The notes: generated from the sequence alone by a model not told the origin. DNA of 5,200 nucleotides from a virus (IMGVR_UViG_2693429524_000010), one strand, 5' to 3'; positions 875 to 5,200 are shown, numbered from the stretch's first letter. Numbers and translations: made by a program.

Positions 875-1105
875 CTTATTGATTTAAATGGTGCGATAAT
901 AGGAACAATACACATAGGCGATAAGCTTTGTTTTTGTTGCCTTTTTTATTGTTCATTTTTTATAGATACCCCCAAAAGTACCCCCATATCTTTTTCCGCC
1001 CCTGAAATTTGGTTGTTATTCATACAGCATATCAGGCGGTAACGCTCTCCCTTTAACCCACTTATTGTATGATAGTGCTATCCCACAATAAGGAATCAGC
1101 CAGCC

Positions 1106-1465
1106 ATGAGAATGACCAGCCGCAAAAAAGAGATACTTAGCTACTTTGAACCGGATAACCTCGAATGGGTGACTGGTGAGATTGGTGCGCCGCCGTTCGA
1201 TGTGTCGGGTGTGGCCTACCTGCTTCATGGCATGGTGTCGTTCGATAAGCGTCACCAGCTCGAATCAACCCGGCGCACACTGGAAAGCATGGTTGCTGGT
1301 GGACTGCTTGAGCGGGTGACAGTGTATGAATCGCGCCAGATACGGCGCGGCGGTGAGACTAACGCAACGGTCGTGCGTTACGGTTTACCCGGTCATTGTG
1401 CTGTTATGCGCGATACTGGCGGCGCTGATAACGCAATATCAGGTGAATACATGCGGGTCAGTTAA
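1106..1465 (+). CDS. Hypothetical protein (119 aa), function unknown
   Basis: ORF with AGGA about 10 nt upstream of the ATG. GC-rich codon composition similar to neighbouring genes. Its 3' end overlaps the convergent gene 1458-2000 by 8 bp. No family recognised. Confidence 0.45.
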   Translation: MRMTSRKKEILSYFEPDNLEWVTGEIGAPPFDVSGVAYLLHGMVSFDKRHQLESTRRTLESMVAGGLLERVTVYESRQIRRGGETNATVVRYGLPGHCAVMRDTGGADNAISGEYMRVS

Positions 1466-2000
1466 TAGCCTGCAATCTGTCGTTGATGCGGCTCAGGTCG
1501 TAAACCCGGCGTTCAATATCCAGCATCAGGAAATTGTGGATCTCGGCCTGCTCAGGATTATCAGACTCTCTGGCCTGTAATAGCAATTCATTGTAACCAT
1601 GCAAGCCGCCTGAGTTTTCCGCCGGGGTGGTGCCTTTCCCACGCAGGCAGCTAATGGGCTGATTACTCGTATCGTGTGTTTGCTTCTCCAGCACAATGAC
1701 GCAATCCCACCAGTCGCCAAAGTCATACGTGTAAACCAGCTTGTCACCCTCATTCTGGAGCGCCGCCCATAGTGGCGTGATTGCCGCGTTACCCATGCTT
1801 TCATCCTCACCCCATACGCGATACTCGCTACCTGGATCACCTTTACGCCCTTTCTCGAACATATACAGGTGTTCGTCATTCCAGCCAAAAGCTAACTGGA
1901 TCACGGCATGAAGTTTACTAAAGGGGATTTGCTCTGGAACCAGCACACGCCGCCATATAGGTGGTTTGCTGTCTCGGATGGTTATCTTTAGCTGGTACAT
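1458..2000 (-). CDS. Plasmid pRiA4b ORF-3-like family protein (180 aa)
   Basis: The N-terminus MYQLKITIRDSKPPIWRRVLVPEQIPFSKLHAVIQLAFGWNDEHLYMFE and the downstream YTYDFGDWWD motif match what I remember of the pRiA4b ORF-3-like family (Pfam PF07929). AGGA lies about 6 nt upstream of the start on the minus strand. Confidence 0.7.
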   Translation of the reverse strand: MYQLKITIRDSKPPIWRRVLVPEQIPFSKLHAVIQLAFGWNDEHLYMFEKGRKGDPGSEYRVWGEDESMGNAAITPLWAALQNEGDKLVYTYDFGDWWDCVIVLEKQTHDTSNQPISCLRGKGTTPAENSGGLHGYNELLLQARESDNPEQAEIHNFLMLDIERRVYDLSRINDRLQAIN

Positions 2001-2120
2001 GCAAATCCTGAATAAATGCGAATCGGAAGGATAACGATACTGACGTACTCACAATTCTGTAAAGGTGAATAAAGGAAATTTGCTTAATACGCATAAGTTA
2101 CATGTGGAATAATCCCATAT

Positions 2121-2306
2121 CTACCTGCGCGGCGCTGGCTTCTTCCACTGGTAGGCAGGTGCTCGCATCATTTCGCGGAACCTGTCGCGCCGGGCTATAT
2201 CGGCATTAACTGATCGTTCTATCTCCCGTTGATCTGCCTGTGTAAGCTGGTGGCCTCCGTGCTCAAGTTTGGCGATGGTCAATAAGGCTATTTCGCGTGG
2301 TGTCAT
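2121..2306 (-). CDS. Small hypothetical protein (61 aa) with a basic C-terminus
   Basis: ORF with GAGGG about 8 nt upstream of the ATG on the minus strand. The C-terminal tail is lysine/arginine-rich (QWKKPAPRR). No family recognised. Confidence 0.4.
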   Translation of the reverse strand: MTPREIALLTIAKLEHGGHQLTQADQREIERSVNADIARRDRFREMMRAPAYQWKKPAPRR

Positions 2307-2577
2307 ACGTCATACCCTCTGGAAGGATGAAACACGCCCGGATTAAATTTCATTTTTCGCGGGTATAAAAAAACGATGGGGCGGGCAGTCCCGGATAGTC
2401 AGGCCTGTAGAGATTTGACTACCCCCTCCCCACTGGATTCAGGTTACTGCTATTCCGTTAAGCGATGCTTACGGGGATAGCTGCGTTGTGATTTTGACCA
2501 TTCAGGTCGCCGCTATTTCCTCACCGATTGGGTGCTACGCGTGCGCGTACTTGTCCCGAAATACCAGAAACCGCCAG

Positions 2578-2599
2578 CCAGAGGATGATTTCCCTCTGG
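2578..2599 (-). terminator. Candidate hairpin just downstream of the PerC-like stop codon (weak intrinsic terminator)
   Basis: CCAGAGG (2578-2584) and CCTCTGG (2593-2599) form a 7-bp inverted repeat with an 8-nt loop. It is followed on the minus strand by a moderately U-rich run (GGUUUCUGGUAUUUCGG). The stem is short and the U tract interrupted. Confidence 0.25.
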
Positions 2600-2603
2600 T
2601 GGT

Positions 2604-2885
2604 CTACCTTTGCCTCTTGCCGCCATTTAACCGGAAGGCGTTACCGTTCGGTTGCGCTATCCCCATGCGGTGTTGCGTTTCGGTAACAGCTTTATGCAGG
2701 TCGCCAAATTCCTCAACCTTCACGGGCGGGCGCTTCACGTTCTCCAGACACGTTTCACGGCGGCGCTTTATCCATTCCCGATCATCGTCCTCGGTGCATA
2801 ACAGCATGACTTCCATCCATCGTGCGGCAGCTCTCCGGTATAGCCCTTTTGACTCCAGCTCTTCAGCTTTCCTGTCCCTTATCAT
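2604..2885 (-). CDS. PerC-family transcriptional activator (PerC/Pch-like, 93 aa)
   Basis: The N-terminus MIRDRKAEELESKGLYRRAAARWMEVM resembles the conserved start of PerC and the EHEC Pch (PerC homologue) proteins, and the size is typical for the family. GAGAGG lies about 5 nt upstream of the ATG on the minus strand. Confidence 0.75.
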   Translation of the reverse strand: MIRDRKAEELESKGLYRRAAARWMEVMLLCTEDDDREWIKRRRETCLENVKRPPVKVEEFGDLHKAVTETQHRMGIAQPNGNAFRLNGGKRQR

Positions 2886-2921
2886 TTCTGCCTCTCAGAT
2901 TATATAGATAAGCAAAAAGGT

Positions 2922-2948
2922 GTTGGTTCAGTTGGTTCAGTTGGTTCA
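2922..2948 (+). repeat. Three perfect tandem copies of the 9-mer GTTGGTTCA
   Basis: Read directly: GTTGGTTCA at 2922-2930, 2931-2939 and 2940-2948, head to tail with no spacer. Confidence 0.95.
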
Positions 2949-2991
2949 ATTTGTAAAGAGCGTTGTTTTTATTGTGTTTTTTCTAAAATAT

Positions 2992-3021
2992 TGAACCAAC
3001 ATCAACTCATTTTGAACCAAC
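2992..3021 (-). repeat. Two further copies of the same 9-mer in inverted orientation (TGAACCAAC), 12 bp apart
   Basis: TGAACCAAC at 2992-3000 and 3013-3021 is the reverse complement of GTTGGTTCA, giving five copies of the 9-mer within 100 bp. Confidence 0.9.
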
Positions 3022-3220
3022 AAAAAGTGTCCGTGAACTAACACTCTGTCAAATAGTCACTACATATATTAACGGTGAAGACTAAATCCGCCAGCAAATA
3101 GCTTATATAGCACCGCTTTATGCCGCAGTTATGCTGGAACAGTAATCATTTCACAGAACCGCCTAACTACTATATGGCACCTGCTAAAAAGCACATCAGC
3201 CTAGTCAGTTGATCGGTGCA

Positions 3221-3249
3221 TGGATATCCTAACAATTCAACTATATAAC
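3221..3249 (+). promoter_or_regulatory. Candidate sigma-70-like promoter facing the downstream two-gene cassette
   Basis: TGGATA (3221-3226), a 17-bp spacer, then TATAAC (3244-3249) inside a TATATAA stretch. This is a by-eye match to TTGACA-N17-TATAAT and is only weakly supported. Confidence 0.2.
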
Positions 3250-3318
3250 GTGATCTCCCATGTCGATCTACTGTCATGCAATGATTAACAAACACATAGA
3301 CACATCTGCTTGGCGCAT

Positions 3319-3328
3319 TGATTAATCA
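3319..3328. promoter_or_regulatory. Perfect 10-bp palindrome TGATTAATCA, with a related half-site TGATTAA at 3282-3288; possible operator
   Basis: Read directly. It lies 45 bp upstream of the ATG at 3373, in the AT-rich leader of the cassette. Confidence 0.3.
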
Positions 3329-3372
3329 CTGATCATCCATCAGGATATGCGAACCACCGTCACCAGGTTAGG

Positions 3373-4458
3373 ATGATTCTCAAAAGCCACCTGTATTCAA
3401 TGCCTTTGATGGGTTTCATCCATAGTTATTTTCTCGTGACTGACATGGAGATTTTGATTTCAAGGTGTGCAAAAACTATCGCAGAGTACAATGGAGCTCA
3501 AATGACTGTGGCACCAAAAGATCAAAGTTTGAAATCTGTAAGGGTGGGCTTTTACACAAGCTCTGAGAATATTCGCACTAGTAACAAGGGGTTAACCGCA
3601 GAGGCCTTTAAAAATCTGTATGATCGGTGTTCTAAAGACTTCAAGATGACCCACTATGCAGACTTTGGTGAAAGAGAACTTAAAATTCATTTTCTAGACA
3701 TCTCACCCGAGGATGGCTCCTACTTCGGATTCATGTCTCGAAGAAGAAAAAGCGCAACACTGGCATATATTACAGATAAAGAGTGGGTGGAAGAGAAAAT
3801 CCCTCTAGCCGGGGCAAAGACTCTTTCAGAACGTACATACTTTATTTATTATCCTCAGACAGACATTCTAGTATTGTCTTTAAATCATTTAGGTCCACGC
3901 CATAGTGACTTAGCCTTCCTTCTTTTCAACTCCAGTGATCGCGGAGTCCCTGTTTCTTTTGAAGCCATTTGGAAAGAAGAAAGCATCAAAGAACTACTCG
4001 AAACTGGATCCAATCTAAGAAGCTGCGAGATTTCTGTGGCCATCCCAAGAAACTTCAATGCCGCACAGTATCAACTCGATGGAATGTTCGCGAATCAGAT
4101 GATTGAGATGATCAGAGGCACCAGTTCAAGCCACCTGACTATTTCGTTACGCGGACATTCTCCATTAAAAAGAAAAGCAAAGGGATGGCTTGAGGATGAC
4201 GTTAAAAAAAGCCTTAAGGAGATGCTAGAAAAGTTCCCTGGTGGTGATGGTCGTTTAACTTTTGAGAAAGCAAATGTTGTTGCTCAGGGCGATAAAAAGA
4301 AGAAAAGTCTTGTAGACGAAGTTCTTACGGTAAAGAAGATGGTGCCTATCCAAGCAGATGGGTATCCGACCGATACTGACGTTAAAAATGCTATGCTACA
4401 AGCAAAGAATGACAACCTTAGGTATCTAACCCAGTACTATTTGGTTAGTCAAACGTAA
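3373..4458 (+). CDS. Hypothetical soluble protein (361 aa as the longest ORF); candidate sensor component of a two-gene module
   Basis: Long uninterrupted ORF in about 40% GC DNA with no predicted membrane segments beyond the doubtful first 24 residues. Three possible starts: 3373 (AGG then TAGG upstream), 3445 (no clear RBS) or 3502 (GGAG 6 nt upstream, which I favour). Its stop is 12 nt before the next start. No family recognised from sequence. Confidence 0.7.
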   Translation: MILKSHLYSMPLMGFIHSYFLVTDMEILISRCAKTIAEYNGAQMTVAPKDQSLKSVRVGFYTSSENIRTSNKGLTAEAFKNLYDRCSKDFKMTHYADFGERELKIHFLDISPEDGSYFGFMSRRRKSATLAYITDKEWVEEKIPLAGAKTLSERTYFIYYPQTDILVLSLNHLGPRHSDLAFLLFNSSDRGVPVSFEAIWKEESIKELLETGSNLRSCEISVAIPRNFNAAQYQLDGMFANQMIEMIRGTSSSHLTISLRGHSPLKRKAKGWLEDDVKKSLKEMLEKFPGGDGRLTFEKANVVAQGDKKKKSLVDEVLTVKKMVPIQADGYPTDTDVKNAMLQAKNDNLRYLTQYYLVSQT

Positions 4459-4470
4459 CAGGAATACATT

Positions 4471-4908
4471 ATGAGTTCTCGGAAATTGTTTGCTGCCAAG
4501 TCATTGTTTGCTCTAGCTATGGCTATTGCTGGTGCCCATTTTTTACACGACCTAGATCACAATGCTGTCATTTCGGCTGCTGGTGCTCTTTCAACTATTT
4601 CTGGAGTTCTCTTTGGTTTTGTTTTGGCATCAGTCACCATGCTAAGTAGCTTTGATAGTTCAAAGGGAATTGTAGGCGCTCTAAAAAGTAACGGAGTACT
4701 AAAAGGCATTATTGAGGGGCTTTTTGATACAGGAACTACGCTGATCACAGCCTGCCTATTAGCAATGATCTCGATGTTTGCCCCTGTTGTCAGCAATCTG
4801 CCTCTGGATTATTATGCCCTGCTACTCGCAGGGGCATATTTGATTATATCAATGATAACTTTTTTCTTTAACTGGAAATCTTTATCTAAAATAATAAGTT
4901 ACATATGA
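4471..4908 (+). CDS. Small integral membrane protein (145 aa) with four predicted transmembrane helices; candidate effector
   Basis: Four hydrophobic stretches of about 20 residues each, at roughly residues 6-25, 36-60, 87-107 and 112-133, with an amphipathic loop between helices 2 and 3. AGGA lies 7 nt upstream of the ATG, and the gene starts 12 nt after the upstream stop, suggesting co-transcription. Confidence 0.75.
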   Translation: MSSRKLFAAKSLFALAMAIAGAHFLHDLDHNAVISAAGALSTISGVLFGFVLASVTMLSSFDSSKGIVGALKSNGVLKGIIEGLFDTGTTLITACLLAMISMFAPVVSNLPLDYYALLLAGAYLIISMITFFFNWKSLSKIISYI

Positions 4909-5028
4909 TAAATATTTCAAAATGAGTCCCCCTGCTACGGATAGTCCTTGGCTTAAAAAATACCGTCACCGCTGAATACCCACACAGTGCCCCCATCCAT
5001 TTAGTTGGCATAATGTATTCAACTGATT

Positions 5029-5048
5029 GAGGAATGGCTCCTCTTTTA
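5029..5048 (+). terminator. Weak candidate intrinsic terminator downstream of the cassette
   Basis: GAGGA (5029-5033), loop ATGGC, then TCCTC (5039-5043) followed by TTTTA. The stem is only 5 bp, so this is marginal. Confidence 0.2.
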
Positions 5049-5089
5049 CTACCAAACGGCCATCGCTGGCGCATTCATCCGCTGGTAGT

Positions 5090-5200
5090 TGAACCGCCCC
5101 GGGTTTCCTGGAGAGTGTTTTATCTGTGAACTCAGGCTGCCAGATCATCGTTTCCGATGGAAGCATAATAAGCTTTTTCTGCTTCTGCCGGAGGAGTATG
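5090..5200 (-). mobile_element. IS3-family insertion sequence (same type as at 1-126), orfB-proximal terminus (IRR); element continues rightward out of the window
   Basis: 5090-5134 reads TGAACCGCCCCGGGTTTCCTGGAGAGTGTTTTATCTGTGAACTCA. Its first 13 nt are identical to the inverted terminus at 114-126 and are followed by a similar TCCTGGAGA block, as expected for IRR versus IRL of one element. Confidence 0.75.
5132..5200 (-). CDS. IS3-family transposase OrfB, C-terminal 22 codons plus stop (partial, runs off the window)
   Basis: Reverse complement of 5135-5200 translates HTPPAEAEKAYYASIGNDDLAA, followed by a TGA stop at 5132-5134, just inside the terminal repeat. That placement is typical of IS3-family orfB; identity is inferred from position, not from a recognised motif. 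Confidence 0.55.
   Translation of the reverse strand, partial: HTPPAEAEKAYYASIGNDDLAA

Follow-up and report, generated by a model that had tools for sequence, protein, structure and literature searches.

A PerC-family gene beside an origin-type iteron array at the attR-proximal end of an EcCIMP1-type phage satellite

Gene content and carrier island

We analyzed a 5,200-nucleotide stretch of DNA assigned to a virus (IMGVR_UViG_2693429524_000010), hereafter the window. It begins with one end of an IS629 copy (1-125, identified by sequence homology), followed on the plus strand by the C-terminal fragment of an SfV/SfII-type tyrosine integrase (126-874; profile and homology) that belongs to a neighboring element and is cut by IS629. 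The region 126-904 shares 98-99.5% identity with the 3′ portion of the integrase gene in the Shigella phages SfV, SfII, SfI, and SfIV, and the homology ends at 904. On the minus strand at 895-904 lies the att core TCCTATTATC of an EcCIMP1-type island end, recognized by the core sequence given in PMC11773190. It is found 202 bp before a conserved 119 amino acid ORF (1106-1465, plus strand; ORF call and synteny), a distance equal to that in strain MP1. This ORF is the last before attR and is convergent with a conserved island-end gene for a 180 amino acid PRiA4_ORF3-family protein (1458-2000, minus strand; PF07929, 146 bits); the two overlap by 8 bp at their 3′ ends. A conserved 61 amino acid ORF (2121-2306, minus strand; phrog_7271) lies downstream of perC, the gene under study, which is preceded by an array of short repeats. 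Beside the array is a variable slot with a two-gene cargo on the plus strand (3502-4908), encoding proteins of 318 amino acids (phrog_7651) and 145 amino acids (phrog_8552). The window closes with a second IS629 end (5095-5200; homology) in direct orientation with the first. An Rfam search of the window returned nothing at E<=1.

Window positions 905-5094 match the attR-proximal end of EcCIMP1-type islands, which are found at tRNA-Thr between proA and yagU. The window contains both the att core and the right-end order of these islands (perC, 61 amino acid ORF, PRiA4_ORF3, 119 amino acid ORF, att), and the segment 895-5094 is shown to be the attR-proximal end of an EcCIMP1-type PICI. EcCIMP1 is a PICI of the commensal E. 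coli MP1 and integrates at tRNA-Thr (thrW). Experiments have verified it as a satellite of the P22-like phage Kapi1; excision and transfer induced by a helper phage were shown only for MP1, and AlpA is the established master regulator (PMC11773190). An earlier interpretation made without database searches, here called the sequence-only reading, had placed perC on a prophage-like element of the kind that carries pch genes. The carrier is a PICI phage satellite and not a lambdoid prophage.

A complete island reads, in order, integrase, AlpA, antirepressor, Ash, primase (Zn-ribbon, Toprim, DUF927), a small ORF, DUF2824, ejection proteins similar to P22 gp7, gp20, and gp16, variable cargo, perC, the 61 amino acid ORF, PRiA4_ORF3, the convergent 119 amino acid ORF, and att. 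The integrase, AlpA, and primase modules lie past the IS629 at 5095 and outside the window; related loci have them. The segment between the IS629 ends (1-125 and 5095-5200) measures 4,969 bp; on the left IS629 truncates the integrase, and on the right it separates the island from its ejection-protein and primase modules. This IS629-flanked configuration was found in none of the complete E. coli RefSeq genomes, where the best coverage was 84% and the related loci are intact islands.

The integrase fragment stops exactly at the att core (895-904). A second element integrated in tandem at the satellite attR is indicated at this junction. The satellite has its own homologs of the P22 ejection proteins (gp7, gp20, gp16) and a DUF2824 gene, and it has no capsid or terminase genes (locus L016, 13481-18649; locus L002, 20238-23692). 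MP1 also encodes a 62% identical paralog of the 61 amino acid ORF, encoded on the same strand as perC immediately upstream of the perC-side array (L016, 10940-11122); this gene is absent from the window. The PRiA4_ORF3 and 119 amino acid proteins (window 1106-2000; loci L017, L019, and L024) are 92-98% identical between E. coli and Enterobacter/Lonsdalea islands; between the same islands the primase is only 72-81% identical and perC 55-92%. By these identities, the end module is either unusually conserved or recently exchanged.

The cargo slot holds at least three alternative gene sets across islands; elsewhere it is occupied by alpA_1 and a 108 amino acid ORF, or by ORFs of 151 and 66/73 amino acids. 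No ORF in the window, including the 318 and 145 amino acid pair, had a match in PADLOC, which leaves the neighboring "defence cassette" of the sequence-only reading (3502-4908) without backing from that search. The pair also received no Pfam assignment. The 145 amino acid product looks hydrophobic.

The perC gene and its predicted protein

The perC gene (2604-2885, minus strand) starts with ATG and encodes a 93 amino acid PerC-family protein, identified by ORF call, profile, and identity as EcCIMP1_025 / WP_000617443.1. A Shine-Dalgarno sequence, GAGAGG, can be read at 2891-2896 on the minus strand, 5 nt upstream of the ATG. In a profile search the ORF matches the Pfam PerC family PF06069 with E=3.7e-30 and 104.5 bits, over profile positions 1-85 of 90, where the gathering score is 22.6 bits. 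The earlier claim of a real PerC-family ORF at this place, for which failure to match PF06069 had been named as the refutation, is borne out. There is an end-to-end match to phrog_994, and RefSeq labels the same ORF "PerC family transcriptional regulator". Compared with homologs in other genera, and where dS is unsaturated, dN/dS is ~0.1-0.2, which indicates a real coding gene under purifying selection.

The window protein is identical to the MP1 protein WP_000617443.1 at 93/93 positions. Since this is the only PerC-family gene carried by EcCIMP1, the window protein is EcCIMP1_025. We regard the identity of the protein and its genomic context as practically certain.

The AlphaFold model (pLDDT 82.5) has helices at residues 5-13, 16-29, 33-50, and 61-74, followed by a basic and poorly ordered tail, and contains no helix-turn-helix. 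Neither a PDB sequence search nor a Foldseek fold search gave a significant match to a solved structure; the top structural matches were helical bundles of MIT domains at E>1. The model shows a predicted small, all-helical protein of the PerC/ANR type with no recognizable DNA-binding fold. Residues L10, E11, Y16, R17, R18, A19, and C46 are invariant across 33 homologs and form an LE..YRRA motif plus Cys46.

Relatives of the window protein

Reference proteins were taken from annotated records: PerC from pMAR2, PchD and PchE from O157:H7 Sakai, and YfdN from K-12, with a 104 amino acid protein of UniRef name "PchABC family" standing for PchABC. The window protein is 36-37% identical to PerC, 36% to PchABC, 42-43% to PchD, and 42-43% to the C-terminus of YfdN. 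The nearest named relative is PchE, with 53-54% identity over 76 amino acids. PerC and PchABC are 47% identical to each other. The comparison with PerC, Pch, and YfdN that had been suggested earlier thus confirms that all are related, but it places the window protein closest to PchE, which is reported to oppose PchABC. The N-terminal motif KAE.LE.KG.YRRAA.RW and a Cys closing helix 3 are common to the window protein, PerC, PchABC, PchD, and PchE. With this motif, this Cys, a length in the range of ~90-105 amino acids, and helices only, the window protein has all traits of the PerC family. It does not have the closeness or the carrier typical of PerC/PchABC (EAF plasmid perABC, lambdoid prophage), being 36-37% identical and carried by a PICI. 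By sequence comparison, the window protein is a family member on the PchE side and not on the PerC/PchABC side.

In Sakai, pchE is located ~1 kb past the primase of Sp7 and ~0.7 kb downstream of the Sp7 iteron array. The pchD gene of O157 Sakai is part of SpLE1, where it immediately follows ibrA and ybdM (locus L044, 39877-40146), a context unlike that of pchE in the satellite Sp7. PchABC-type genes adjoin phage lysis genes (locus L013), a context unlike that of pchD.

We also compared the family with ANR proteins. Members of that family have 39-80 amino acids, three predicted helices, and a conserved Cys, repress AraC-type activators, and are encoded with an AraC-type gene nearby (PMC4038620). 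The NCBIfam ANR model NF033650 matches residues 5-50 of the window protein with 31.1 bits (E=1.6e-7), against a curated cut-off of 32. The window protein is the top scorer among the PerC-family members tested; the others score 23.5 (YfdN), 18.2 (PerC), 17.9 (PchE), 16.2 (PchD), and 13.6 bits (PchABC). One relative that is 78% identical to the window protein carries the NCBI name ANR. From these profile matches, PerC and ANR look like one superfamily. The activators PerC and PchABC match the ANR model too, so ANR similarity alone does not account for repression. In size, helices, and locus the window protein departs from ANR proteins, with 93 amino acids, four helices, and no AraC-family gene in the island.

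Distribution

The exact protein sequence was found in 14,408 blocks of an assembly collection. At the DNA level, perC with its upstream region matches 634 of 5426 complete E. coli genomes, 219 of them over >=80% of the query. Sources of the carriers include giant panda, yak, deer, mouse, chicken, pig, pangolin, lettuce, and humans, and some carriers are O111 EHEC strains. Commensal and pathogenic carriers have been reported in about equal numbers (Pick et al., PMC11773190). The same study found the presence of PerC to be variable among EcCIMP1-like elements, a point against an essential core role.

Among species-representative genomes, homologs sharing 49-92% identity turned up in islands of eight genera: Enterobacter, Shimwellia, Atlantibacter, Leclercia, Lonsdalea, Pantoea, Chimaeribacter, and Erwinia. 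The integrase, AlpA, antirepressor, and primase are the same in most of these islands, and the right-end genes are shared by many. These eight genera are not known as A/E (LEE-bearing) pathogens. Control of the LEE is unlikely to be the native role of the window protein. The proposal that the gene points to a pathogenic E. coli lineage does not hold, given that it is common in commensal and animal isolates and has homologs in Pantoea, Lonsdalea, and Erwinia. When the protein was compared by tblastn with 50,697 phage records, there were two weak matches only, to the P1-like phi456 and to Fels-1; perC is no typical prophage gene.

Iteron arrays

Upstream of perC, the window contains five exact copies of TTGGTTCA at 2923-3020 and one degenerate copy at 3034-3041. 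The perC-proximal half (2922-2948) consists of three head-to-tail 9-mers GTTGGTTCA with 9-bp spacing, which are invariant in eight aligned arrays. It is followed by an AT-rich spacer of ~43 bp (2949-2991; GC 0.33 for 2901-3100), a candidate melting region, and then by three copies in opposite orientation with 21-bp spacing (2992-3041), two of them exact (2992-2999 and 3013-3020) and the third reading TTAGTTCA (3034-3041). Chance would give 0.24 copies of TTGGTTCA per window, and five copies occurred in 0 of 200 shuffles.

Across 29-34 kb of the E. coli islands, TTGGTTCA is confined to exactly two clusters, against an expectation of 1.3-1.5 copies; the observed count was matched in 0 of 100 shuffles. 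One cluster precedes perC and the other starts ~20 bp past the primase stop codon. The two are inverted, near-perfect twins of ~125 bp that lie 7-9 kb apart and bracket the ejection-protein and cargo modules (10737-10855 and 19277-19395 in L016; 17044-17158 and 24310-24435 in L002). In each twin, an AT-rich spacer of ~40 bp separates three copies spaced by 9 bp from three others spaced by 21 bp (21/11 bp in some islands). The window array (2922-3041) is the distal twin. Islands of other genera have a single array between primase and perC.

When eight arrays from five genera were aligned, the repeat words alone were invariant and the spacers varied. Islands with differing primase alleles keep the architecture and change the word: it is TTGTCTCA in two Enterobacter islands (L017, 9205-9458; L019, 9206-9459) and TCGGTTCA in one Pantoea island (L025, 8668-8914), and TGCGGGTTA follows the primase of Sakai Sp7 (L045, 754-1070). 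Ten primase alignment columns split the TTGTCTCA-type from eight TTGGTTCA-type proteins, and all ten are at positions 822-823 and 891-910 of 918. A link between primase allele and iteron word is suggested by this pattern, which comes from few independent lineages. Sliding-window identity along the primase was also tried and did not separate the iteron types; the C-terminal clustering became visible only in the column-wise comparison.

In the published description, a PICI origin lies 3′ of the replication gene and consists of an AT-rich region with an iteron set on each side (Fillol-Salom et al. 2018, PMC6092414), and the window array has this layout of two sets around an AT-rich region. By its architecture, the repeat cluster is shown to be one of two inverted origin-type arrays and not a private promoter element. 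The 9-mer array noted earlier upstream of perC is real, with its role as a promoter element replaced by that of a copy of an origin-type array. By analogy we infer that the arrays would function as an origin, presumably bound by the island primase-helicase. The window copy may be a relic, because the primase is missing from the window (IS629 at 5095).

Position and expression of perC

In 13/13 related islands that have a primase, perC is downstream of an array, co-oriented with the primase, and the first or nearly the first gene after the array. We distinguish three module orders, with A and B denoting arrays. Type I (pri, A, B, (ORF), perC, packaging) occurs in Enterobacter and in a single Pantoea island. 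Type II (pri, A, perC, packaging, B, 61 amino acid ORF) is found in Lonsdalea, Pantoea, Chimaeribacter, and Erwinia, with no second array seen within the Erwinia locus. Type III (pri, A, packaging, cargo, B, perC, 61 amino acid ORF) is the order of E. coli and of the window. A simple inversion between the twin arrays was considered as the source of these orders and rejected, as the gene orientations do not fit. Among E. coli variants, homology breakpoints are found at ~2903, 3022, and 3044, which are the array edges (the latter two at the outer side of the 21-bp-spaced set), so the array also bounds the variable cargo slot.

The distance from the last repeat to the perC ATG is 37 nt. A scan for sigma-70 promoters and terminators found no site near perC, and a TATAAT at 2899-2904 was rejected as its -10 element because transcription would start inside the Shine-Dalgarno sequence. 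From the short gap and the lack of a convincing promoter, we infer that transcripts of perC must either begin inside the array or pass through it. Such an arrangement suggests that origin binding and perC expression could be coupled. Between perC and the 61 amino acid ORF, a GC-rich branched hairpin followed by U7 (2362-2440, minus strand) is a tentative terminator; its folding energy is no better than that of shuffled sequences and the terminator scan did not call it.

Effect on the LEE and proposed function

EcCIMP1_025 silences LEE1-lux in Citrobacter rodentium in a dose-dependent manner, in LB and in DMEM, in a set-up in which perC of EPEC activates the same reporter (Pick, Stadel & Raivio, ISME J 2025; PMC11773190). 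For the identical protein, this is the ler/LEE1 reporter assay that the sequence-only reading had called for. The result was obtained by expression from a plasmid in a heterologous host. It runs against the sequence-only reading of a PerC/Pch-like LEE activator, as does the 36-37% identity to PerC/PchABC. Other PICI PerC homologs differ in effect: some activate the LEE and others do not (Fillol-Salom et al., PMC6092414), and the PerC-like genes of EcCIEDL933 and EcCICFT073 had no LEE1 effect according to Porter et al. 2005 as cited in PMC11773190. PchE acts in opposition to PchABC (PMC7369912). The PerC family label is no predictor of regulatory sign, and the sign of EcCIMP1_025 is opposite to activation.

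Pch activates only through relief of silencing by H-NS, StpA, Hha, and YdgT and lowers H-NS binding at LEE1 (PMC4764244), and ANR proteins modulate H-NS according to Pick et al. (PMC11773190). By extension from Pch and ANR, the window protein would be a small adaptor that acts on H-NS-type or activator complexes through protein-protein contact and not a classical operator binder; we give this mechanism an even chance. Because the gene is conserved in genera not known as A/E (LEE-bearing) pathogens, its native targets are probably in the satellite, the helper phage, or the host nucleoid. The flanking DNA has a GC content of 0.33-0.42 from 2900 to 4900, which makes it a typical H-NS substrate.

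Taken as a whole, the best explanation is that perC is a PICI backbone gene, located behind an origin-type array, for a PchE-like and complex-acting LEE silencer, and we hold this reading to be probable. A wider proposal, which we put forward as speculation and think rather improbable, is that PerC-family genes are ancestral, origin-adjacent backbone genes of enterobacterial satellites that would remodel H-NS-type complexes on their own AT-rich origin and cargo or on the helper phage. LEE activation by PerC and PchABC and silencing by EcCIMP1_025 and PchE would then be secondary cross-talk, and the paired inverted arrays would serve at once as a two-part origin similar to P4 ori/crr and as junctions at which recombination reshuffles the perC, packaging, and cargo modules.

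Alternative explanations

That perC encodes a PerC/Pch-type ler activator on a prophage-like element, marking a LEE-positive lineage and tying virulence control to the island, is scarcely credible. The protein is a true PF06069 member, some PICI PerC homologs are reported as LEE activators (PMC6092414), the gene is in some EHEC O111 genomes, and the flanking IS629 ends are in keeping with a lineage rich in IS elements, for example EHEC or Shigella. However, the identical protein silences LEE1-lux (PMC11773190) and is only 36-37% identical to PerC/PchABC; it is also present in the commensal MP1 and many animal isolates, with commensal and pathogenic carriers about equal, and homologs are found in islands of plant- and insect-associated genera. 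Pick et al. offered the hypothesis of a strict ANR anti-activator, which would block an AraC-family activator (for example, RegA in C. rodentium) as ANR proteins do with AggR and Rns. We consider this unlikely. The 31.1-bit match at residues 5-50 (E=1.6e-7) speaks for it but is under the curated cut-off, and all tested PerC-family members, including activators, match the model weakly as well (13.6-23.5 bits); the similarity therefore extends across the superfamily and is no guide to the sign of regulation. The three N-terminal helices and the conserved Cys agree with an ANR protein, but the length of 93 amino acids and the fourth helix fall outside the 39-80 amino acid range. A repressive phenotype and a close relative named ANR at NCBI also favor the hypothesis; no AraC-type gene is nearby, unlike at described ANR loci.

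A dedicated regulator of the satellite life cycle, acting on origin firing, the packaging/ejection operon, the cargo slot, or helper interference, with the LEE effect as cross-talk, overlaps with the backbone-gene reading favored above and is in our judgment possible, if somewhat doubtful, in its own right. In its favor are the co-oriented place of perC first or nearly first after the array in 13/13 primase-bearing islands across three module orders, the place of PchE ~1 kb after the Sakai Sp7 primase and array, purifying selection, the presence of perC where LEE-type targets are unexpected, and AT-rich flanks that are a typical H-NS substrate. On the other hand, no perC deletion phenotype for excision, replication, or transfer has been reported, the presence of PerC varies among EcCIMP1-like elements (PMC11773190), and AlpA is already the established master regulator. 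The repeats themselves could be an operator for perC, serving autoregulation or AlpA binding, and not a replication element, which we judge very improbable. The array comes to within 37 nt of the ATG and overlaps any -35 element that perC might have, and direct and inverted repeats are typical of operators; yet an identical inverted twin directly follows the primase stop codon with no perC adjoining, iterons around an AT-rich spacer are the published PICI origin layout (PMC6092414), the word shifts with the primase allele while perC stays homologous, and in type II islands perC is on the opposite side of the array.

Significance

Published work already covers the gene, its carrier, and its LEE effect. 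What is new is modest and limited to the twin origin-type arrays, the fixed place of perC behind an array, and the closeness to PchE. The label "PerC family" should not signal a virulence activator or a pathotype marker; the window protein belongs to a satellite that is widespread in commensal and pathogenic E. coli, and in the one published test it silenced the LEE. The EcCIMP1 paper (PMC11773190) makes no mention of iterons or an origin, and the arrays offer a testable origin for this satellite type. They also put perC first, or nearly so, after the array in every related island examined and delimit the variable slot that holds the candidate defence cassette.

Comparison with known systems

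The window resembles EcCIMP1 of MP1 in its PerC (93/93), the flanking 61 amino acid, PRiA4_ORF3, and 119 amino acid genes, the att core, and the upstream iteron array. It differs in the upstream cargo, which is alpA_1 in EcCIMP1 and the 318 and 145 amino acid pair in the window, as well as in the degenerate third 21-bp-spaced iteron, the IS629 cut, and the abutting SfV-type integrase fragment. In the E. coli islands, as in the PICI origin (PMC6092414), two sets of short iterons flank an AT-rich region immediately 3′ of the primase. P4 is similar in that its crr iterons come directly after the alpha primase gene, with ori 4.7 kb away in the regulatory region; both P4 ori and crr are built from TGTTCACC, whereas the island word is TTGGTTCA. 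Unlike the PICI origin and P4, the islands have as their second cluster a near-perfect inverted twin, 7-9 kb off and before perC.

PerC of EPEC (pMAR2 perABC) and PchA/B/C of EHEC share with the window protein the Pfam family, the N-terminal motif, the Cys, and a similar size. They activate LEE1, whereas EcCIMP1_025 silences it, and their genes are carried on the EAF plasmid beside perA/perB or on lambdoid prophages near lysis genes, whereas the window perC is carried by a PICI. The ANR family (for example, Aar of EAEC; NF033650) is similar in being small and helical with a conserved Cys, in repressing virulence genes, and in the near-cut-off score; the window protein differs in scoring below that cut-off, in being longer with a fourth helix, in having no AraC-type neighbor, and in matching far better as PerC (104.5 bits). 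The gene for PchE of EHEC O157:H7 Sakai (ECs_1588) belongs to the satellite-like element Sp7, where it follows a primase and an array with matching iteron architecture; PchE is reported to oppose the LEE and adhesion and not to activate them (PMC7369912). It differs in its iteron word (TGCGGGTTA), in a C-terminal third that is divergent from that of the window protein, and in its carrier, since Sp7 is another satellite type with capsid and terminase genes.
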